The position numbers and the translations under genes are program-made. The notes below the pieces were generated by a model. It was not told the DNA's origin, did no database searches, and was given only the letters and a program-made list of their open reading frames with translations. A DNA stretch of 5,753 bases from a virus, in the IMG/VR virus record IMGVR_UViG_3300045988_003325, positions 1-5,753 of that record. The stretch is one strand, 5' to 3'. Positions 1-5,753 of this stretch are shown here, piece after piece. The number at the start of each line of letters is the position of its first letter. The first letter of the stretch is position 1.

Positions 1-662
1 ATTTTTTTTGTAACGTACCCTGCAACATATCTATATGTTTCTGGCACTGCTTGTGCTATCTGTATTTGACCCATGCCCCATATGTTTGCTAGCCATTTAC
101 TTGTGAAATATCCGTTGTGTTGTATCTTGTATAGTTGTTCTAGGTCTGTTGGTTGCCATCCATATAGTATCATATGATAATGTGGCCTAGCTGTCTGTTC
201 TCCGTACTCTCCTGCTACAAAATAGCGTAATTTGCCCCTATAAGCCTTTCTGAGCCTTTTTAAGAATTTTTGAACATCAGTATACAGCAAAGTTTGGACG
301 CTTTCAGGGCGCTTCTCTCCCGGTTTCCAGACGTATTGTACTTTTCGCATGATTTCGCCTGTTTTTACTATCATGCCTGGTACGTGATCGTCGTCATACG
401 TGAGTGTGATAAACCAAACTTCTTCTCTTGGATAATCTCGTGCTTCTAATTCTATACGTGTTGTCCAGTCCTCTCTTTGTCTTATTCTGCATCCGATGCA
501 TTGCCCGCATGGTATTAGCATGACATCTTTTCTAAACATCAAATCTTCATATTTGAGCTGTTTCCCGATTATTTTAGAAAAGCGGGCAAGTGAATACACC
601 CGCCCGCTTATGTTTTTATTTTCCGGGTTGTACAGCCTTATTAACGGCTTGTAACAACTCAT
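1..662 (-). CDS. VP4: Replication initiation protein VP4 (HUH rolling-circle endonuclease), N-terminal ~220 codons. The gene crosses the circular junction and continues at 5753->5297; in unit-genome coordinates it is 5297..5654 joined to 1..662, 339 aa.
   Basis: Minus-strand translation from ATG at 662..660 gives MSCYKPLIRLYNPENKNISGRVYSLARFSKIIGKQLKYEDLMFRKDVMLIPCGQCIGCRIRQREDW...FITLTYDDDHVPG...RYFVAGEYGEQTARPHYHMILYGW...NIWG. The frame then continues without a stop into the 143-aa track ORF MGQIQIAQAVPETYRYVAGYVTKK... CGQCIGCR, FITLTY (motif 1), PHYHMIL (HUH motif 2) and YVAGYVTKK (catalytic Tyr motif 3) are the hallmarks of Microviridae VP4/gene A proteins. SD AGGTGA lies ~9 nt upstream. 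The start codon overlaps the VP2 stop (ATGA). The ORF track missed it because it runs off the window edge. Confidence 0.9.
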   Translation of the reverse strand, partial: MSCYKPLIRLYNPENKNISGRVYSLARFSKIIGKQLKYEDLMFRKDVMLIPCGQCIGCRIRQREDWTTRIELEARDYPREEVWFITLTYDDDHVPGMIVKTGEIMRKVQYVWKPGEKRPESVQTLLYTDVQKFLKRLRKAYRGKLRYFVAGEYGEQTARPHYHMILYGWQPTDLEQLYKIQHNGYFTSKWLANIWGMGQIQIAQAVPETYRYVAGYVTKK

Positions 663-1552
663 CTTAGATAATCACCTGGCTTTCTCTTTTCTCCGTATGA
701 TCCTGTTTTGTCTTGCGGTTTCATTTCTCGGCTTTCTCCTGTTTTTGGCTTGTTTCTTCCAGCGCCGCCGGCCGCTCCTGGCACAGTGCTTTCTGTCTTT
801 TGCATTTGCCTGTAGGTTTTCAGCAAATCTTCTGTTAATTGTTTTGGGCTGCTATAGCTTCTGCTCATTTGGCTGCCTACGGCTTCTGCAAGCTGATACC
901 ATTGTGAATTGCTTTCTGACTTGCTGTAATAGCTTGTCGGCACGTTGCCATTCATCGTTGATACGCCTAGTGCGCTTGATGTTGGCATTCCCATGCTTGC
1001 GCCTGTAATTGTTGCTCCGGAGCCTCCCGGTGTGCTTGCTCCTCCGTTTGCAAATGCTAAGATAGGGTTTAACCCTGCTTTTCGCATATCTTCCACGGCG
1101 CGTTGATAGCTTGTATTGCTCATGCGTTCTTGGAAATTTCGGTTTGCTAGTGCTTCTGCACTGTTGTAACTCATTGCAGCATTTTGCTCGATGTGGTTGT
1201 AAATGCCCTGTTGGATTGCTCCTAACGTGTTATAGCCCATCTGCATTAACATGTTTTGACGGTTTGTTTTGCTCTGGAATGCGTTTTGCCCTCCTTGCCA
1301 GTTATAGAAGCGGTCTAGATACTTCATGATTTGTTCGTCGTTTGTGCCGCCTTCACTTGTTGACGAACTTGTGCCAGCGCCTTGGCTTTGGCTTTGATTC
1401 CATCCCTGGCTTTGGCTGTCTGACGTTTGCCCAAACTGACTTGCTAGTCCTTTTCCAGCTAGTGTTAACGCGCTTGTTATTACTTGTGGATTATTTGCAA
1501 ACCAGCTACCTACTGCTTTTCCGGCCGCTCCGATTGCTCCTAGTATTGACAT
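659..1552 (-). CDS. VP2: Minor capsid / DNA pilot protein VP2 (297 aa)
   Basis: ATG start at 1552. Gly/Ala-rich hydrophobic N-terminus (MSILGAIGAAGKAVGSWF...), a long Ser/Gln/Gly low-complexity linker, and the block NTSYQRAVEDMRKAGLNPILA, which matches the conserved YQR..D...AGLNP motif of gokushovirus VP2 pilot proteins (from memory). Sits immediately downstream of VP1, as in other Microviridae. Confidence 0.8.
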   Translation of the reverse strand: MSILGAIGAAGKAVGSWFANNPQVITSALTLAGKGLASQFGQTSDSQSQGWNQSQSQGAGTSSSTSEGGTNDEQIMKYLDRFYNWQGGQNAFQSKTNRQNMLMQMGYNTLGAIQQGIYNHIEQNAAMSYNSAEALANRNFQERMSNTSYQRAVEDMRKAGLNPILAFANGGASTPGGSGATITGASMGMPTSSALGVSTMNGNVPTSYYSKSESNSQWYQLAEAVGSQMSRSYSSPKQLTEDLLKTYRQMQKTESTVPGAAGGAGRNKPKTGESREMKPQDKTGSYGEKRKPGDYLR

Positions 1553-1590
1553 TTAAAAATAGCCCGGATTTCTCCGGGCTTCCTCCTTTC
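1553..1590 (-). terminator. Intergenic stem-loop between VP1 and VP2: 8-bp stem AGCCCGGA/UCCGGGCU with GAAA tetraloop, followed by AUUUUUAAAUG. Candidate leaky intrinsic terminator/attenuator and mRNA-stabilising hairpin.
   Basis: + strand 1561-1568 agcccgga and 1573-1580 tccgggct are exact reverse complements. On the minus-strand transcript the stem is followed by the U-run encoded by + 1555-1559. The only SD-like element (AAGGAGGA, + 1581-1588) lies 5' of the hairpin, ~30 nt from the VP2 ATG. Confidence 0.4.
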
Positions 1591-3237
1591 TTACAGCTTG
1601 TACAAGCCCGGTACGCTGTACAACGGCATCCGTCTTGTGGTTTTGTTTGCTACGCGGATAGCTCCGAAAAATTGCGGCTCATTCTGCACAACGAGTGTGC
1701 GTGCAATTTCGTTCTTGCCTTCTTCCATCCAGTCTTGCGATAGTGTCGGTGCGGTTGAATAATTGTCTGCGTAGTGCCAGAAATCTAACGTGCCTGTTGC
1801 GTTGCTTCGCATGAGGCCGCTTACCCGGTTTGGTTTCATTCGGTAGTCCGCCCAGGCCTCCTGATAGCCGAATGTTTCTTCGTCCGTTGCCGTGCCGGTC
1901 AACATGATTTCTTTTTTCTTTACGGGCTGTTCGCCTATATTTGCAAACTGCGGTACATAGTAGTCTAGTCTGTCTTCTCGACTCCAGAAACGTTCCAAGC
2001 CTTGCTGATAACTGCGATTGTGTCGCACACAACAGACACCAATTACAAATCCATGCTCTTCAAAAGATTTGGTAAAAGAGCTTTCGTTTATCGGCGTTAC
2101 TGACATTGCACCAGTTTCGCCCAGCGGTGACATATCGTTTGCCGCTGTCTGCACGATTTGGTTGATATTGACGTGATATCTGCCGCCGCCCAGGTATTCT
2201 GGAATCTGTATCGTTTTGTCGCTGATAGTTACATTCCACAGTGCTTGTACCTGTTCGCGGTATCTGCTGCCGCCTCGTGCGAGCGCTTCGTAGTACTGCT
2301 GTACTGCTACGGCTTTTCTTAAGTCGTTGATCGTTGCTGCGGTTACACTGCTAAGGTCTGCTTTTAGGAATGCTTCTGCGGTGTAGTTACCTCCTTCAAT
2401 TGTGCCTTTTCCTGTCAGTTTTCCCGCTTTTTCCGTGTTTGTAAAGTTCGTTGTGCCGTTTGCCGGCCACGGCTGGTTTAGGATTATTTTATCTGTTATT
2501 TTGGCGGTATCTTGGATGGTGTTATATCCAAATACCGGTGCATTACCTTCCATCGGCAGCGTTACTGCCGGCCCGCGCTGAGGATAAGGCAGACAGCTTG
2601 TGAAGTAGTCGTGAAATTTGTTTACAGGTAACAGGTTTCCGCCTTTGTACGCGTTGTTTTCTGCTTCTTGCACCCAATCTTCATTTCCAAATTCGTAGTC
2701 TACGTTTGCATCGTCTGTTTTTAACGTTGCTACGTTATCTACGTTTTCATCTCTGAAAAATTCATTCCAGATTTTTACATACGCTCTTATGGGTAGTGCG
2801 TTAATGCTAAATTCTTTTTTAATTTTGGTCGGCACTCCCATATAGTCCAGTATGGATCTTTCGTTTGGTTTTGGTGCTGCGTCCGTTCCTTTGATTTTGA
2901 TTTTCGGCACTGCGTATTCTTTTTTTGGCATCCATGGTGTTGCTTCTACTTCTCCCATGAAGTATTTGAAGTTGTCCCACAGAATTCTGTTAGGACAATA
3001 GAAATAGTAGAAGTCAATGAATGCATCGTCCATCACCGGGTATTTCGGTGTGCTCATTCGTATGATTGCTGCTGTATCCACGTTGAAGGTATCGCCCGGT
3101 AATACCTCGTCAACATAGAATGGAATCAGCTTGCCGGAATCGAACGTTGTTAAAACCGTCTGGTCTCGGTTGAACCGTGTTCGGCTCGCTTTCATTTCTG
3201 GGATTTGGTTGAAGTGCCGTTCGTTGTTTCGATTCAC
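1591..3237 (-). CDS. VP1: Major capsid protein VP1 (548 aa), gokushovirus-type; GTG start codon
   Basis: Translation MNRNNERHFNQIPEMKASRTRFNRDQTVLTTFDSGKLIPFYVDEVLPGDTFNVDT... matches the conserved N-terminal block of gokushovirus VP1 (..SRF......TFD.G.L.P.YVDEVLPGDTF..) and the size is typical (530-570 aa). The first codon is GTG (revcomp of 3235-3237). An in-frame TAA lies 6 codons upstream, so no ATG alternative exists. A perfect AGGAGG lies 7 nt upstream. Confidence 0.93.
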   Translation of the reverse strand: MNRNNERHFNQIPEMKASRTRFNRDQTVLTTFDSGKLIPFYVDEVLPGDTFNVDTAAIIRMSTPKYPVMDDAFIDFYYFYCPNRILWDNFKYFMGEVEATPWMPKKEYAVPKIKIKGTDAAPKPNERSILDYMGVPTKIKKEFSINALPIRAYVKIWNEFFRDENVDNVATLKTDDANVDYEFGNEDWVQEAENNAYKGGNLLPVNKFHDYFTSCLPYPQRGPAVTLPMEGNAPVFGYNTIQDTAKITDKIILNQPWPANGTTNFTNTEKAGKLTGKGTIEGGNYTAEAFLKADLSSVTAATINDLRKAVAVQQYYEALARGGSRYREQVQALWNVTISDKTIQIPEYLGGGRYHVNINQIVQTAANDMSPLGETGAMSVTPINESSFTKSFEEHGFVIGVCCVRHNRSYQQGLERFWSREDRLDYYVPQFANIGEQPVKKKEIMLTGTATDEETFGYQEAWADYRMKPNRVSGLMRSNATGTLDFWHYADNYSTAPTLSQDWMEEGKNEIARTLVVQNEPQFFGAIRVANKTTRRMPLYSVPGLYKL

Positions 3238-3656
3238 TCTTTTTCCTCCTTTTCTTTAGTTTTTGTTTCAGGTTCTTTTTCTACTTTTTCTTCTGCCTTT
3301 TCTTCTGCCTTTTTTTGCAGTTCTTCAAGCTTCATTGCGTTTGCTTGTGCGGTCGCAATCATGCGATGATACTCGTGAATGTTTTGCGGAAATTCGGTGA
3401 TATCCACTTCTGTTCCGTTTAGTGCTCCTTGTGACAGGCTTTTCATGAATTGCGGGTCAAAACTTGCCTTTCTGACAATGCTTTTGATGTCGCATTCGTC
3501 CGCATAGCTTTCAATTTCCTGTTGGATGTCGATTGGTTCGGTCTCTTGCAGCACTTCTTGCCCTTTTTCGTCTTTTGTCCAGACGTATTGTTTTTGAAAT
3601 TTTTCTCCTGATTTTGAAAAGAAGGGCTTTCGCCCTTCTTCATATCGTTTATTCAT
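3234..3656 (-). CDS. Hypothetical ~140-aa acidic protein with Lys/Glu-rich C-terminal tail; candidate internal scaffolding (VP3-like) protein. The track ORF extends to 3716 using a TTG.
   Basis: ATG at 3656..3654 preceded by GGGAGGG ~8 nt upstream; the longer 160-aa form starts at a TTG with no SD. The stop overlaps the VP1 GTG start (GTGA), implying translational coupling with the capsid gene. The C-terminus ELQKKAEEKAEEKVEKEPETKTKEKEEKE is encoded by a tandem nucleotide repeat (ttcttctgcctttt x2 at ~3290-3320). Size and position resemble Microviridae scaffolding proteins, but no motif was recognised. Confidence 0.55.
   Translation of the reverse strand: MNKRYEEGRKPFFSKSGEKFQKQYVWTKDEKGQEVLQETEPIDIQQEIESYADECDIKSIVRKASFDPQFMKSLSQGALNGTEVDITEFPQNIHEYHRMIATAQANAMKLEELQKKAEEKAEEKVEKEPETKTKEKEEKE
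3245..3250 (-). promoter_or_regulatory. Shine-Dalgarno AGGAGG for VP1 (7-nt spacer to GTG start)
   Basis: + strand cctcct at 3245-3250 reads AAAGGAGGAAAAAGA-GTG on the minus strand. Confidence 0.7.
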
Positions 3657-3888
3657 GCGGCTTACCCTCCCACACCTTTTCTGTGTCGTTCGTGAACGTG
3701 CCGAGCTCGTCTTCAAATACTGCTAGCTTGAAACCGGTGTAGTCCTGTGGACTCTGCCCAATGAAGGTCTTTTCGTCCTTTGCCATCACGTTGCACATGC
3801 GTGCAAAGGTTGCACTGTTCTTGCTCTCGCCTACCCATGCGTAGCACTTTGCTACACTGTCCCATACGCCAAAATATTCATGCTTCAT
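3649..3888 (-). CDS. Hypothetical protein, 79 aa, mildly acidic, Trp-rich; no recognisable family
   Basis: ATG at 3888 with AAGGAAAG ~10 nt upstream. The stop overlaps the next gene's start by 8 nt (CATGAATAA). Lies in a tightly packed same-strand gene array. Confidence 0.55.
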   Translation of the reverse strand: MKHEYFGVWDSVAKCYAWVGESKNSATFARMCNVMAKDEKTFIGQSPQDYTGFKLAVFEDELGTFTNDTEKVWEGKPHE

Positions 3889-3908
3889 GATATCTACTTT
3901 CCTTTCTT

Positions 3909-4031
3909 TTACAGCCGGATGCCACCGCGCATAGGCTTCTGGCTAAGGTTGATTGTTTTGGTTTTTCGTGCGGTTACGTTAAACATGCGGCGGTCTTTTG
4001 CGCCGTTCATCCTCTTACGATGTTGTGCCAT
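3909..4031 (-). CDS. Small basic DNA-binding protein (40 aa), analogue of the phiX174 J / gokushovirus ORF8-type DNA-condensing protein. Not in the supplied ORF track because it is too short.
   Basis: Manual minus-strand translation from ATG 4031..4029 to TAA 3911..3909 gives MAQHRKRMNGAKDRRMFNVTARKTKTINLSQKPMRGGIRL. About 12 of 40 residues are Arg/Lys. The C-terminal RGGIRL and overall pattern match my recollection of the Chlamydia-phage ORF8 small basic protein. Good SD AAGGGAG 8 nt upstream. Overlaps the end of the 74-aa gene by 17 nt. Confidence 0.65.
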   Translation of the reverse strand: MAQHRKRMNGAKDRRMFNVTARKTKTINLSQKPMRGGIRL

Positions 4032-4239
4032 TGGTATACTCCCTTCTTACAAGTTCCATTTCGATTGCGTTTGCAAAACTCTTCATTCTCCATATTTCGT
4101 CAAGCATTTTTTTTGCGTCTTCGACGTTAGATATTTTGCGAAGCATTTTGTATTCGCCATCGATTTCTTTGTATTTTCGAGTTAGCATCTCTTCAAGCGC
4201 TTCTTTGGTCTGGTCTCTTACGTTCCATGTTTTGTGCAT
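4015..4239 (-). CDS. Hypothetical protein, 74 aa, predicted all-helical and Lys/Glu-rich (possible coiled coil); VP5/C-like function is speculation only
   Basis: ATG at 4239 (the track's first M is a GTG one codon upstream). AAGGAG lies 9 nt upstream, and the preceding gene's TGA stop (4248..4246) lies just before that SD. No recognisable motif. Confidence 0.55.
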   Translation of the reverse strand: MHKTWNVRDQTKEALEEMLTRKYKEIDGEYKMLRKISNVEDAKKMLDEIWRMKSFANAIEMELVRREYTNGTTS

Positions 4240-4245
4240 CACGGT

Positions 4246-4368
4246 TCACTCCTTTTCTTTTTCGTTGATGCTATCGTGCAGCGCATGATAGATTTCGTCG
4301 AGTTTTTCCAGAATCTGCATCATGATGCGGATTGCCTGCTTGATGTCTTTAATGGAAATCAGTGCCAT
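4246..4368 (-). CDS. Hypothetical small amphipathic peptide (40 aa: MALISIKDIKQAIRIMMQILEKLDEIYHALHDSINEKEKE); the alternative 71-aa form starts at ATG 4461
   Basis: ATG at 4368 begins 1 nt after the peptidase TAA stop (TAAAATG) and is preceded by AGGGGG ~7 nt upstream. The longer form from 4461 has no SD and would overlap 92 nt of the peptidase gene in another frame. Confidence 0.45.
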   Translation of the reverse strand: MALISIKDIKQAIRIMMQILEKLDEIYHALHDSINEKEKE

Positions 4369-4369
4369 T

Positions 4370-4762
4370 TTATACCCCCTTTCTGTACTTGCTGGTTCGT
4401 ACATCAAAGTGCACCCAGCTTTTGTATACGATAATGCCGCATTCATCCGGGACGATTGCATTCAGTTCGTTGGCAATTTCTTTTGCACTCATTCCATTTA
4501 CTCGGATATCTGCTGCCATACCGCGCATATGATAGCTGTATTTTGCTCCCCCGCATTTTGTGTTCCACTCTGGTGTTCTGTATCCGCTGGTGATGATGAC
4601 CGGTTTTTCTAACTTATTTCGCAGGATGTCCAGAACACTATACAAGTAGTCGTCTATGAATACTACCGGACTGCCGTCTTTACATGCAAATTCTTTTACT
4701 TTGAAGTATTTTGCAAGCTTTACATTTCCGTCAGTTTCTACAATGTAGCTTTTAATGCTCAT
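4370..4762 (-). CDS. Peptidase M15 (M15A / Peptidase_M15_3, zinc D-Ala-D-Ala carboxypeptidase-fold cell-wall hydrolase); likely lysis enzyme. The maximal ORF extends to ATG 4867 (165 aa).
   Basis: ITSGYRTPEWNTKCGGAKYSYHMRGMAADIRVNG...SWVHFDVR contains the family signature SGYR..N...GG..S.H..G.A.D plus VHxD (the His/Asp/His zinc ligands). The internal ATG at 4762 has GAGGAAA 7 nt upstream and gives a 130-aa product of typical domain size. The upstream ATG at 4867 has no SD and adds a Lys-rich 35-aa extension. No signal peptide. Confidence 0.8.
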   Translation of the reverse strand: MSIKSYIVETDGNVKLAKYFKVKEFACKDGSPVVFIDDYLYSVLDILRNKLEKPVIITSGYRTPEWNTKCGGAKYSYHMRGMAADIRVNGMSAKEIANELNAIVPDECGIIVYKSWVHFDVRTSKYRKGV

Positions 4763-4904
4763 GGCTGTTTCCTCGCTTTCTGTTTTGATTGTATCATCTT
4801 TTTTGTCGCTTGTCAATTGTTTTTTTGGCTTGAATGGCGCTTTAGCGCCTTGCCGTGCGTAGCGCATGCGGAGCTCGGCTTAATCCATTCCTTTTTAGCG
4901 CTGT

Positions 4905-5025
4905 GCGCGTTTTTAACACTTTCAACATTTTCAACAGCTTTTCAACAAAATATTGCACAATGATTTTCGTCATTTTGACGAACATTCAACATTTTAACAT
5001 TTTTTCAACAAATCTTTCAACATTG
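4905..5025. repeat. Iteron-like direct repeats: six perfect TTCAACA copies (4921, 4930, 4941, 4985, 5004, 5016) plus degenerate TTAACA copies, all in one orientation, 9-12 bp apart, in two clusters of three
   Basis: Read directly from the sequence. Each copy is preceded by a T-tract, giving ~10.5-bp phasing. The extended unit TTTTCAACA is 8/9 identical to the DnaA-box consensus TTATCCACA. Confidence 0.6.
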
Positions 5026-5120
5026 TTTTTTGTTATTTATTTACGCTTTAACGTTAAATTTTAGTACTTATCAACTTTTCCACATTGCCTACTACTACGT
5101 CTACAACAAGTTAATATTAT

Positions 5121-5190
5121 ATCGCGCGTGCGCGCGTGCGCGCTATCGCGCGTGCGCGCGTGCGCGCTATCGCGCGTGCGTGCACGTGTG
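5121..5190. repeat. GC-rich tandem repeat: the 24-nt unit ATCGCGCGTGCGCGCGTGCGCGCT occurs as two exact copies (5121-5144, 5145-5168) plus a diverged partial copy (5169-5190) ending in the palindrome CGTGCACG. Alternating purine/pyrimidine (CG/TG) tract.
   Basis: Exact copies verified by eye. About 85% GC inside a ~43% GC genome. Many self-complementary CGCGCG/GCGCGC blocks allow alternative hairpins in ssDNA or Z-DNA in dsDNA. Confidence 0.75.
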
Positions 5191-5236
5191 AATTAGATTA
5201 TTTGATAGACTGAATAGTCTGATATATGGAGTCTTT

Positions 5237-5276
5237 AAACGACAAAAGCCCAGTGCTTACTTGATAGGCACTGGGC
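5237..5276 (-). terminator. Rho-independent terminator downstream of VP4 on the minus strand: 9-bp stem GCCCAGUGC/GCACUGGGC, 11-nt loop, then UUUUGUCGUUU
   Basis: + 5248-5256 gcccagtgc and 5268-5276 gcactgggc are exact reverse complements. The A-tract at + 5244-5247 gives the U-run on the minus-strand RNA. Lies 21 nt after the VP4 TAA (5299..5297). Confidence 0.55.
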
Positions 5277-5296
5277 TAGGTGACACCATGACACTG

Positions 5297-5753
5297 TTAA
5301 AGTGTCCCTTTTTTCTTTGTTTGTTTCTTGATTACTCTTTCTTTTGTCTTGCACTGTTCCGTAAAGTCTGCGTTTTCATACTTAAGCCTGTTTTCTGCTA
5401 TGACTGCTTCTTGTCTGTTCTGCTTAATTCTCCACAATCTTTGTGGGTTTTCAGCTTCCATCATTTTTTCATAATAACGTGGAATTTGTGCGTGTTTTCC
5501 GTTTGTGCATTGGATATAGCCTTGCTTCCATATTTCTGCTTTGTGTTCTTGGTAATAGTGGTCTCCCAGGCCTGGCTTGAGACTCATACATGCAAAAGGT
5601 TTTTGTTGCCCTAGTTCATAGTATGCGTTTGCCTTTATTCCGTCTATTTCGTACATTTTTTTTGTAACGTACCCTGCAACATATCTATATGTTTCTGGCA
5701 CTGCTTGTGCTATCTGTATTTGACCCATGCCCCATATGTTTGCTAGCCATTTA
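5297..5753 (-). CDS. VP4: Replication initiation protein VP4, C-terminal part (continuation of the gene whose start is at 662). Nt 5655-5753 duplicate nt 1-99.
   Basis: The track ORF 5297..5728 (MGQIQIAQAVPETYRYVAGYVTKKMYEIDG...) is in frame with, and contiguous to, the N-terminal part across the circular junction. It contains motif 3 YVAGYVTKK and ends at TAA 5299..5297. Confidence 0.9.
   Translation of the reverse strand, partial: KWLANIWGMGQIQIAQAVPETYRYVAGYVTKKMYEIDGIKANAYYELGQQKPFACMSLKPGLGDHYYQEHKAEIWKQGYIQCTNGKHAQIPRYYEKMMEAENPQRLWRIKQNRQEAVIAENRLKYENADFTEQCKTKERVIKKQTKKKGTL
5655..5753. repeat. Terminal redundancy: 99 nt identical to window positions 1-99 (circular genome closure; unit length 5,654 nt)
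   Basis: Exact string identity of 5655-5753 with 1-99 checked base by base. The VP4 reading frame is continuous across this junction. Confidence 0.9.

Follow-up and report, generated by a model that had tools for sequence, protein, structure and literature searches.

A CG/TG-alternating hairpin in the non-coding region of uncultured gokushoviruses: a candidate single-strand origin beside a putative nick site

What is a GC-rich, almost pure CG/TG repeat doing in the AT-rich non-coding DNA of a tiny single-stranded DNA (ssDNA) phage? The question is raised by positions 5123-5190 of the IMG/VR virus record IMGVR_UViG_3300045988_003325, of which the whole stretch from 1 to 5,753 (5,753 nucleotides, hereafter the window) was analysed; the strand as given is called the + strand. 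The window is the genome of a gokushovirus. Every recognisable gene lies on its minus strand, and the GC-rich element sits in the sole large non-coding region, which extends from the VP4 stop codon (5297) to the peptidase gene. Few ssDNA phages are as abundant in the gut of humans and animals as the gokushoviruses; no member of the present clade has been cultured, and no description of its replication signals was found in the literature searched. We propose that the element works as an ssDNA hairpin specific to one strand, within the origin region, and that a complementary-strand (single-strand) origin is its most plausible role; we favour this reading tentatively, at slightly less than an even chance. 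The non-coding region can now be mapped as holding a candidate nick site, a candidate single-strand origin (sso) and an unwinding module of the host-DnaA type, and this map yields a simple prediction of the virion strand.

The repeat and the hairpin behind it

A first-pass annotation of the window had described a 24-nt tandem repeat of 2.5 copies, two units being exact and the third diverged, in a GC island of about 85% within AT-rich surroundings. Tandem Repeats Finder confirmed the architecture (5120-5180, period 24, 2.5 copies, 100% matches, score 122) and reported an underlying period of 8 nt (CGCGCGTG, 7.2 copies). The island is genuine as well, with 76-78% GC against 24-31% in the flanks of the element and 43.9% in the genome, but its GC content had been overestimated: it is 75.7% over 5121-5190 and 77.9% over 5123-5190, and about 90% is reached only in the 21-nt blocks. 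Inside these 70 nt lie 21 of the 299 CpG dinucleotides of the genome, together with its three longest purine/pyrimidine alternations (21 nt at 5123-5143, 21 nt at 5147-5167 and 20 nt at 5171-5190); the next longest elsewhere measures 14 nt. The parts of the element are the following.

5120-5143, + strand: repeat unit 1, TATCGCGCGTGCGCGCGTGCGCGC; its CG/TG block, 5123-5143, is the 5' hairpin arm of the relatives
5144-5167, + strand: repeat unit 2, identical to unit 1; the extra unit, present in this genome only
5168-5191, + strand: repeat unit 3, TATCGCGCGTGCGTGCACGTGTGA, diverged (75% identical); the 3' arm of the ancestral hairpin
5123-5190, + strand: the whole GC-rich hairpin element

On the + strand, unit 2 pairs with unit 1 to give a 20-bp hairpin with the loop CTAT.

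Relatives were collected by means of two conserved flank motifs and a VP1 profile, which took the comparison beyond two GenBank records; they are designated below by locus number where they must be told apart (L117 is Chp2, L119 is SpV4, L293 is phiX174 and L116 is KT264801). Conservation in related genomes, one of the checks that the first-pass annotation had suggested, is extensive. About 60 genomes carry, at the same position, a homologous CG/TG-alternating imperfect palindrome of 18-26 bp. Their VP4 proteins are 45-95% identical to that of the window, and the farthest lineages stand at about 45-47% in both VP4 and VP1. The form designated type A, ...GTTAATATTATA TCGCGCGTGCGCGCGTGCGCGC TATCGCGCGTGTGCGCACGTGCG AATTAG..., consists of a full unit followed by a diverged unit, and its stem has 21-26 pairs closed by the loop CTAT or CTAC. 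Type B, the KX513868-like form, reads CGCGCGTGCGCGCGTGCGCG-CTT-CGCGCGCGTGCGCACGCGCG and is preceded by an additional hairpin, GGCGCT...AGCGCC, whose stem covaries (GGCACT/AGTGCC, CAACGCT/AGCGTTG). A perfect 23-bp hairpin is found in MG945391 (ATACAGGCATGCGCGCGCGCGCG-AAA-CGCGCGCGCGCGCATGCCTGTAT) and in L111 (ATACAGGCATG.../...CATGCCTGTAT), and other lineages have outer stems of their own (TCATGCG...CGCATGA, CTGCGCG...CGCGCAG, ACCG...CGGT, TATAGCG...CGCTATA), so that complementarity reaches beyond the core into non-alternating, lineage-specific flanks. The RNAalifold consensus helix of the element comprises 16 pairs, and at one column pair (15-49: UA 7, CG 5, UG 5) T-A replaces C-G through U.G intermediates. 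The conserved entity is an imperfect palindrome made of two quasi-palindromic 24-nt units rather than a three-unit repeat, and the central loop, the complementary non-alternating flanks and the T-A for C-G replacement via U.G identify it, at the level of sequence comparison, as a hairpin-forming inverted repeat and not an alternating tract alone. In L110, L111 and KT264801, several hairpins of G-runs and C-runs are gathered between the CG/TG hairpin and the nick-like stem-loop described in the next section. A coding reading of the repeat was rejected: a mechanical open reading frame (ORF), 5030-5191, does cross it, GC/TG tracts being stop-free in most frames, but no frame is kept across type A, type B and the other lineages. 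An Rfam scan of the window returned only a chance-level Termite-leu match (527-612, E = 0.42).

The third copy is a different matter. The extra exact unit is missing from all 15 of the closest type A genomes, which have one unit plus the diverged unit, and a 39-nt probe spanning the unit1/unit2/unit3 junctions matched nothing exactly, either in IMG/VR or in the metagenome collection. Three copies are peculiar to this genome. The private duplication adds about 8-11 kcal/mol to the stability of the structure (-33.5 kcal/mol, compared to -22 to -25.5 in the closest type A genomes). Length changes in or near the element are common among the relatives, with an 8-nt duplication in L003 and L020, a 9-nt duplication in L067, deletions in L108 and L159 and an insertion in L179, besides the 24-nt duplication of the window; because such small duplications and deletions are frequent, the region is regarded as slippage-prone. 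The first-pass annotation had also warned of an assembly artefact. For the element itself this is excluded, since homologues occur in dozens of IMG/VR contigs as well as in GenBank records of French and Chinese origin. That the extra 24-nt unit alone arose in assembly is very improbable. No second assembly has the third copy. On the other hand, similar small duplications occur in independent relatives, and the contig closes into a circle of 5,654 nt, its ends being identical over 99 nt in direct orientation (1-99 = 5655-5753), a redundancy that probably reflects a de Bruijn assembly with k = 99; with that k, the 72-nt array and both its flanks would fit within single k-mers that are necessarily present in reads. 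Taken by itself, the repeat is a modest finding, that of a conserved accessory hairpin with a private change in copy number.

The two strands of the element do not fold equally well. Over 5090-5230 the + strand, as ssDNA, folds at -36.6 kcal/mol (z = -2.74, 0 of 200 shuffles as good) and the minus strand at -30.6 kcal/mol (z = -1.19); for the element alone, 5123-5190, the values are -33.5 and -27.3 kcal/mol, respectively, and in the fold ensemble the hairpin is well defined on the + strand only. The same asymmetry was found throughout the relatives when G.T and A.C mismatches were scored alike, so that the pairing register was chosen without strand bias, and stabilities were computed with DNA parameters. 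The 42 distinct hairpins contain, on the + strand, 164 G.T mismatches and 5 A.C mismatches, and in 40 of them it is the + strand that is more stable, with a mean of -24.2 versus -18.7 kcal/mol. When one representative is kept per 85%-identity cluster, the ratio of G.T to A.C is 47:3 (P = 0.012 against the genome-wide T:A bias). As for the earlier suggestion that the packaged single strand folds into GC hairpins, the better folder is the non-coding + strand, which would be the packaged one, instead of the coding strand, according to the three arguments given below.

Surroundings of the hairpin: a nick-like stem-loop and an oriC-like module

Downstream of the GC element, at a distance of 56 nt and on the same strand, lies a stem-loop resembling the nick sites of rolling-circle replicons. 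It is accompanied by two short conserved elements.

5207-5220, + strand: small conserved hairpin AGACT-GAAT-AGTCT, within the conserved spacer TTGATAGACTGAATAG
5247-5277, + strand: putative VP4 (Rep) nick-site stem-loop, stem AGCCCAGTGCTT/AGGCACTGGGCT, loop ACTTGAT
5281-5286, + strand: TGACAC box, 3' of the nick-like stem-loop, near-invariant

The relatives display at least eight unrelated, covarying stems at this place, including GGGCCTATACC, GTGGGCCTAATCC, GGGCCCCAATAAG and GTCAGCCCCATTAC, as well as CTAGCGTATAACAG in Chlamydia phage Chp2, and the loop core CTTGAT is invariant over eight different stems, that of Chp2 included. Compensatory double changes are seen in 7 of the 10 consensus pairs, and TGACA is invariant in 13 of 14 representative sequences, the exception being Chp2. 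The loop, ACTTGATA, is identical to the viral-strand origin of phiX174, ACTTG/ATA (CAACTTG/ATA is annotated in J02482 at 4306). CTTG/ATA is also the nick consensus of the pC194-family plasmids. The window thus combines, as expected of a double-strand origin, this consensus in a loop with an HUH-type Rep, VP4 (PF23343), and both features are shared with the phiX174 and pC194 origins. In phiX174, however, the nick motif lies inside gene A, without a hairpin and on the coding strand, whereas here it occupies the loop of an 11-17-bp covarying stem that is followed by TGACAC, on the non-coding strand. From these comparisons 5247-5277 is likely to be the VP4 nick site, and by analogy with phiX174 the cut would fall between G5263 and A5264. 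Read on the minus strand, the nick-like hairpin followed by a T-run resembles a terminator for VP4. A dif/XerCD site was considered, both for the AT-rich junction and for this stem-loop, and rejected, no match to the dif consensus being visible by eye and the stem arms being covarying, not conserved.

Which strand would be nicked, displaced and packaged? In the window and in its whole clade the CTTGAT loop belongs to the non-coding strand; in Chp2 and L290 it belongs to the coding strand. Base composition at four-fold degenerate sites follows the loop. On the coding strand of the window these sites are rich in A and poor in T (A 0.49 and T 0.11 for five genes pooled; A 0.45 and T 0.08 for VP1 alone), which puts T at about 0.49 on the + strand, while T on the coding strand reaches 0.50 in Chp2, 0.65 in SpV4 and 0.61 in L290. 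In phiX174, used as a control, the virion strand, which is the coding strand, has T 0.63 and A 0.07. Wherever the stem-loop was detected among the compared genomes, the CTTGAT loop and the T-richness are found on one and the same strand. The coding strand of phiMH2K is likewise A-rich and G-poor, and no nick-like stem-loop was found in that phage. Because the nick motif lies in a loop of the + strand, because the T/A skew follows the loop strand and because the hairpin has decayed through G.T mismatches alone, we lean, with some reserve, towards the view that it is the + strand that is nicked, displaced and packaged, in other words that this clade packages its antisense strand. If true, strand-specific viromics data for these phages need another reading. 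In Chp2, the region upstream of the nick-like stem-loop (2810-2900) holds repeated iterons of the GTGCAAAAAA type, and neither the DnaA-box/trio module described next nor the CG/TG hairpin. This implies that the accessory elements of the origin differ between gokushovirus clades.

On its other side, the GC element adjoins a block of about 200 nt whose organization recalls that of bacterial chromosomal origins.

4837-4849, + strand: GC hairpin GGCGC-TTTA-GCGCC, on the far side of the non-coding region
4897-4909, + strand: left GC palindrome AGCGCTGTGCGCG, left breakpoint of the invertible module 4910-5122
4910-5084, + strand: DnaA-box-like cluster, about ten co-oriented 9-mers, TTTTCAACA and variants
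5076-5084, + strand: perfect DnaA box TTTTCCACA (TTWTNCACA), the last of the cluster
5089-5109, + strand: DnaA-trio-like CTA CTA CTA CGT CTA CAA CAA (complement, 3'-5', GAT GAT GAT GCA GAT GTT GTT)
5110-5122, + strand: AT-rich tract GTTAATATTATAT, resembling a DNA-unwinding element and containing the reverse-strand TATAAT

Most boxes of the window read TTTCAACA, one mismatch away from the consensus. The proximal pair of boxes is followed by a 4-nt spacer, TTGC, and then by the trios. This succession of boxes, spacer, trios and AT-rich DNA has been conserved, in 74 distinct sequences, among gokushoviruses whose VP4 identity falls to about 45%, and constitutes the most conserved DNA between distant members; its box/spacer/trio dialect can be written TTTTCAAC-TTTTCCACA-N4-CTACTACTAC. 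In 76 genomes, the box strand of the module has perfect boxes at about 330 times the frequency found elsewhere in these genomes. The basal unwinding grammar of bacterial oriC consists of a box, then 0-16 bp of spacer, three or more trios (3'-GAT-5' consensus) and an AT-rich element (PMC8287927). In C. difficile oriC2, the trio 5'-CACCTACTACTATTACTACTATGA-3' follows three boxes and precedes the unwinding element (PMC7561715). The module contains a box with at most two mismatches, a spacer within 0-16 bp and at least three trios (NAN on the trio strand), all co-oriented, and the relative orientation of its boxes and trios agrees with the C. difficile example, whose trio sequence is close to its own. 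It therefore shares with bacterial oriC the tandem co-oriented boxes, the perfect proximal box, the 4-nt spacer, the three or more trios with a middle adenine and the AT-rich tract. It differs in being carried by a 5.6-kb rolling-circle ssDNA phage, outside any dnaA/dnaN context and in both orientations with respect to the genes and the nick site. On this likeness, 4910-5122 appears to be an oriC-like unwinding module and a candidate DnaA site. The literature searched contained no paper linking Microviridae to DnaA boxes, and among the papers on DnaA-trios and bacteriophages, or on Microviridae, DnaA and replication origins, none was about microvirus origins, to judge from titles and abstracts. 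If true, this would be a case of a rolling-circle phage using the chromosomal initiator, and the module would offer a sequence handle for host prediction, its box/trio dialect being expected to match the oriC of the host. A perfect 12-nt palindrome, TTTAACGTTAAA, stands at 5047-5058 within the box cluster; relatives have ACGCTTTAGCGT at this position, which contains TAGCGT, the CS-6 motif of plasmid ssoA. Further GC-rich hairpins are found on the far side of the module, at 4837-4880, and homologous ones in L130, L133 and L141, genomes that have no CG/TG hairpin.

The module is reversed relative to the genes in KT264801, L126, L186, L229, L153 and L232. L126, whose VP1 is 97% identical to that of the window, illustrates this well: its left flank is collinear (90% identity), its module aligns only as the reverse complement, over all 212 columns and with 77% identity, and the GC element and the right flank are collinear again. 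This alignment puts both inversion breakpoints at GC palindromes (4897-4909, and 5123 onward), which shows the palindromes to be recombinogenic. In L126, L186, L229 and KT264801, the hairpin keeps its place and polarity beside the nick-like stem-loop and then adjoins the box end of the module. Since the module inverts and the hairpin stays, the hairpin is linked to the nick strand, and not to the AT-rich tract or the TATAAT. The existence of both orientations also means that the module probably acts on duplex DNA; for this reason, the idea that its (CTA)n run provides start sites for a Firmicute primase on the virion strand was dropped.

Readings of the hairpin

The first-pass annotation had listed a complementary-strand origin among the possible roles of the element, and this is the reading that fits best the position 5' of the nick-like loop, the tolerance of G.T and the cassette-like distribution. 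In the scheme that we propose, a stable hairpin of the 20-bp class would fold on the T-rich + strand, about 56-140 nt 5' of the Rep nick stem-loop, and this strand would be nicked, displaced and packaged. While SSB coats the rest of the single strand, whether incoming or displaced, the hairpin would remain duplex; it would then be recognised, or used for entry, by the host priming machinery, which starts the synthesis of the complementary strand. The 24-nt duplication of the window would be a private slippage product of the quasi-palindromic unit, lengthening and stabilising the structure. Several observations lead to this reading: the hairpin is stable and lies on the probable displaced strand, upstream of the nick; its mismatches are almost all G.T; its distribution is that of a cassette; and its core does not co-diverge with VP4. 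As to position, the hairpin is 5' of the nick-like stem-loop, on the same strand and in the same order in all relatives, inverted modules included, the nick site itself being putative. In rolling-circle plasmids, an sso classically lies just upstream of the nick site, in the DNA that is last to be displaced. Pairing is strand-specific (the 164 G.T, 5 A.C and 40 of 42 given above), with mutation bias as an alternative cause. The core remains similar while VP4 falls to 45% identity, which points to a host factor or to pure structure as what matters, rather than to a Rep-specific site. Finally, the presence/absence polymorphism of the hairpin is consistent with sso elements being dispensable, exchangeable cassettes.

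Known single-strand origins offer both likenesses and differences. Like ssoA, ssoU, ssoT and ssoW of Firmicutes rolling-circle plasmids, the element is an imperfect palindrome that is exchangeable and functions, in our proposal, in one orientation, on the displaced strand, a short distance upstream of the nick. Those origins are structures of about 130-200 nt, whereas the element has only a 20-bp stem with a 3-4-nt loop, is almost pure CG/TG and has neither RSB nor CS-6. With the n' (PriA) site of phiX174, G4 oric and ori(-) of M13/f1 it has in common that it is a stable intergenic hairpin of a small ssDNA phage; such hairpins escape SSB and recruit priming enzymes. Inspection, without an alignment being run, revealed no likeness to any of these sequences, be it the phiX174 n' site or the promoter-like hairpins of the filamentous phages. 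Neither the -35/-10 stems by which M13 mimics a promoter nor the three-hairpin array with a CTG start of G4 is present; the stems hold only CG/TG, and a promoter scan of 5123-5190 was empty. An origin of the CRESS/geminivirus type, with the nick in the loop of the GC hairpin, was discarded, since these loops (3-4 nt, up to 7) are too short and the stem does not include the TAATATTAT-like sequence. For other clades of microviruses, predicted hairpins have already been put forward as complementary-strand signals (PMC9865509). The kind of element is thus already known, and what is new is its CG/TG form, with its strand asymmetry and its origin context. The other role evoked by the first-pass annotation for the packaged strand, that of a packaging signal, found nothing in the analysis to support it.

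A number of facts weigh against a single-strand origin. By inspection, the element bears no sequence likeness to any characterised sso or primosome-assembly site: the ssoA motifs RSB and CS-6 (TAGCGT/A) are missing, the loops being CTAT, CTT, TTT, TCTA, ATTA or AAA, without TAGCG, and there is no -35/-10 mimic in the stems. The hairpin is not universal, as L123, L130, L133, L139, L141, L157, L169, L171 and L225 have no CG/TG hairpin and keep both the module and the nick-like stem-loop, the former running directly into the latter; the GC hairpin at the other side of the module is retained in this sublineage. The CG/TG hairpin is therefore accessory or replaceable, and dispensable in these genomes. 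The core shows only weak formal covariation, since partners slid by two positions still give 92% paired cells and column shuffles give 94.1%, compared to 96.2% observed; any even register allows an alternating (Y-G)n tract to pair, so that core covariation does not prove the hairpin. The excess of G.T could largely reflect a C-to-T mutation bias on the + strand and not selection. Packaging of the + strand, which we deduce from motif and composition, conflicts with the textbook rule for Microviridae, to which antisense packaging is contrary. And were the coding strand packaged, the hairpin, with 4-7 A.C mismatches, would still fold, at -27 kcal/mol.

The same DNA may instead act in the duplex, a reading that we consider unlikely but of appreciable weight. 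The (CG/TG)n blocks (21 + 21 + 20 bp) would then serve as Z-DNA, as a cruciform or as a GC clamp and, together with the left palindrome 4897-4909, would bracket the module, confining or buffering supercoil-driven unwinding in the 5.6-kb replicative form; as a by-product, the palindromes would be the recombinogenic borders at which the module inverts. Stretches of 20-21 bp of CG with interspersed TG are long enough for a B-Z transition at natural superhelical density. The Z-DNA-prone character noted in the first-pass annotation indeed holds at the level of sequence, with runs of 21, 21 and 20 nt against the approximately 12 bp needed, and the perfect alternation of these blocks, the three longest of the genome, is that of d(CG)n/d(TG)n tracts. 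Moreover, the element adjoins the AT-rich end of the module in most genomes, the inversion breakpoints are the two GC palindromes, and GC hairpins stand to the left of the module even where the right one is missing. Nearly all substitutions among the elements of the relatives are transitions and keep the alternation, which would suit a duplex role, but transitions preserve alternation automatically and are not independent evidence. Unlike plain Z-DNA tracts, the element has a conserved central loop, and its complementarity extends into conserved outer flanks that do not alternate, for which Z-DNA has no need. The 4-7 A.C mismatches in the hairpin of one strand disfavour cruciform extrusion, and in the genomes with an inverted module the hairpin lies at the DnaA-box end, so the link with the unwinding tract is not conserved in position. 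The strand asymmetry, too, would be meaningless in an element that acts only as duplex, save as mutation bias. It is distinctly unlikely that the element has no selected function and is simply a slippage- and recombination-prone, CpG-rich quasi-palindrome in permissive non-coding DNA, with a neutral triplication. The sublineage devoid of the hairpin, the frequent length variants in and around the element and the weak core covariation would all be accounted for in this way. What argues otherwise is that position and polarity are the same down to about 45% VP4 identity, that outer stems are kept by lineage-specific complementary changes, and that a CpG-dense island of 76% GC in a tract of 24-31% GC, under a strong C-to-T bias, should decay fast if unselected.

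Two further possibilities were weighed. The element might belong to the plus-strand origin, as a site where VP4 binds or is positioned or as an enhancer of initiation or termination, in the manner of pT181 IR-III or the pMV158 bind locus. VP4 is indeed a Rep of the HUH type (PF23343), and the hairpin is always 5' of the nick-like stem-loop, with a fixed polarity. The distance between the two is highly variable, from 5 to about 130 nt, the core does not follow the divergence of VP4, and the hairpin is absent from a sublineage that has the same stem-loop, all of which makes this role improbable. A transcriptional element, either a structure gating the adjacent TATAAT promoter, as the first-pass annotation had put forward, or a terminator, is very improbable. 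The TATAAT is present on the minus strand (5121-5116, the reverse complement of 5116-5121), and the element does lie between the terminator-like hairpin of VP4 and downstream promoters. The hexamer is, however, the end of the AT-rich tract of the module: it has no -35, a promoter scan calls none there, and it moves away in the genomes with inverted modules (the adjacency is lost in L126, L186, L229 and KT264801) while the hairpin stays. No T-run follows the hairpin on either strand, the terminator role for VP4 is filled by 5247-5277 and its T-run, and Rfam gave no match. A single-strand origin remains our preferred reading of the hairpin. Its combination into a composite gokushovirus origin of a kind not described before, in which a DnaA module of the type expected for a Firmicute-like host would recruit host DnaA to the replicative form, a nick stem-loop on the antisense strand would lead to antisense packaging and the CG/TG hairpin would serve as sso, is, taken as a whole, rather doubtful.

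Genome, relatives and host

The genes recognised in the window are these.

659-1552, minus strand: VP2
1591-3237, minus strand: VP1 major capsid protein (Phage_F, E = 1e-140)
3234-3716, minus strand: scaffold protein of the Chlamydia-phage type
3649-3888, minus strand: ORF5/VP5
within 4370-4867, minus strand: peptidase M15
spanning the contig ends, stop at 5297, minus strand: VP4, matching PF23343 (ORF2/G2P rolling-circle Rep family, HUH-type)

Megablast against phage records matched only gokushoviruses, from human, pig and monkey faeces, the top matches being KX513868 (82% identity over 80% of the query) and KT264791 (85.5% over 73%). With several distant microviruses from pig faeces (52 records), the megablast alignment of the window is reduced to the non-coding block. 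The mechanical ORF of the peptidase M15 gene begins at 4867, and a strong promoter-like sequence, TTGACA-17-TACAAT with a TG, lies inside it (4816-4788). The peptidase product is annotated as 131 aa in relatives. Because of the promoter-like site within the ORF and the size of the product in relatives, the true start is probably an ATG at about 4762, in which case the non-coding region would measure about 530 nt.

A search of 185,579 genomes for the host or for prophages gave no match with VP1 as the query; the module pattern, in the same genomes, returned only one 5.7-kb phage contig, binned in a metagenome-assembled genome named 'Bacteroides sp. CAG:545', and one chance match in coding DNA. 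L232 (CAVKUS010000079.1), a complete 5.7-kb gokushovirus contig with the module, carries this bin label. This binning is probably no evidence of host, since the strong Shine-Dalgarno sequence and the promoter of the sigma-70 type argue against Bacteroidota. The host is probably not an enterobacterium. The AAGGAGG that precedes VP1 and the TTGACA-17-TACAAT promoter suggest a host outside the Bacteroidota, probably a Firmicute.

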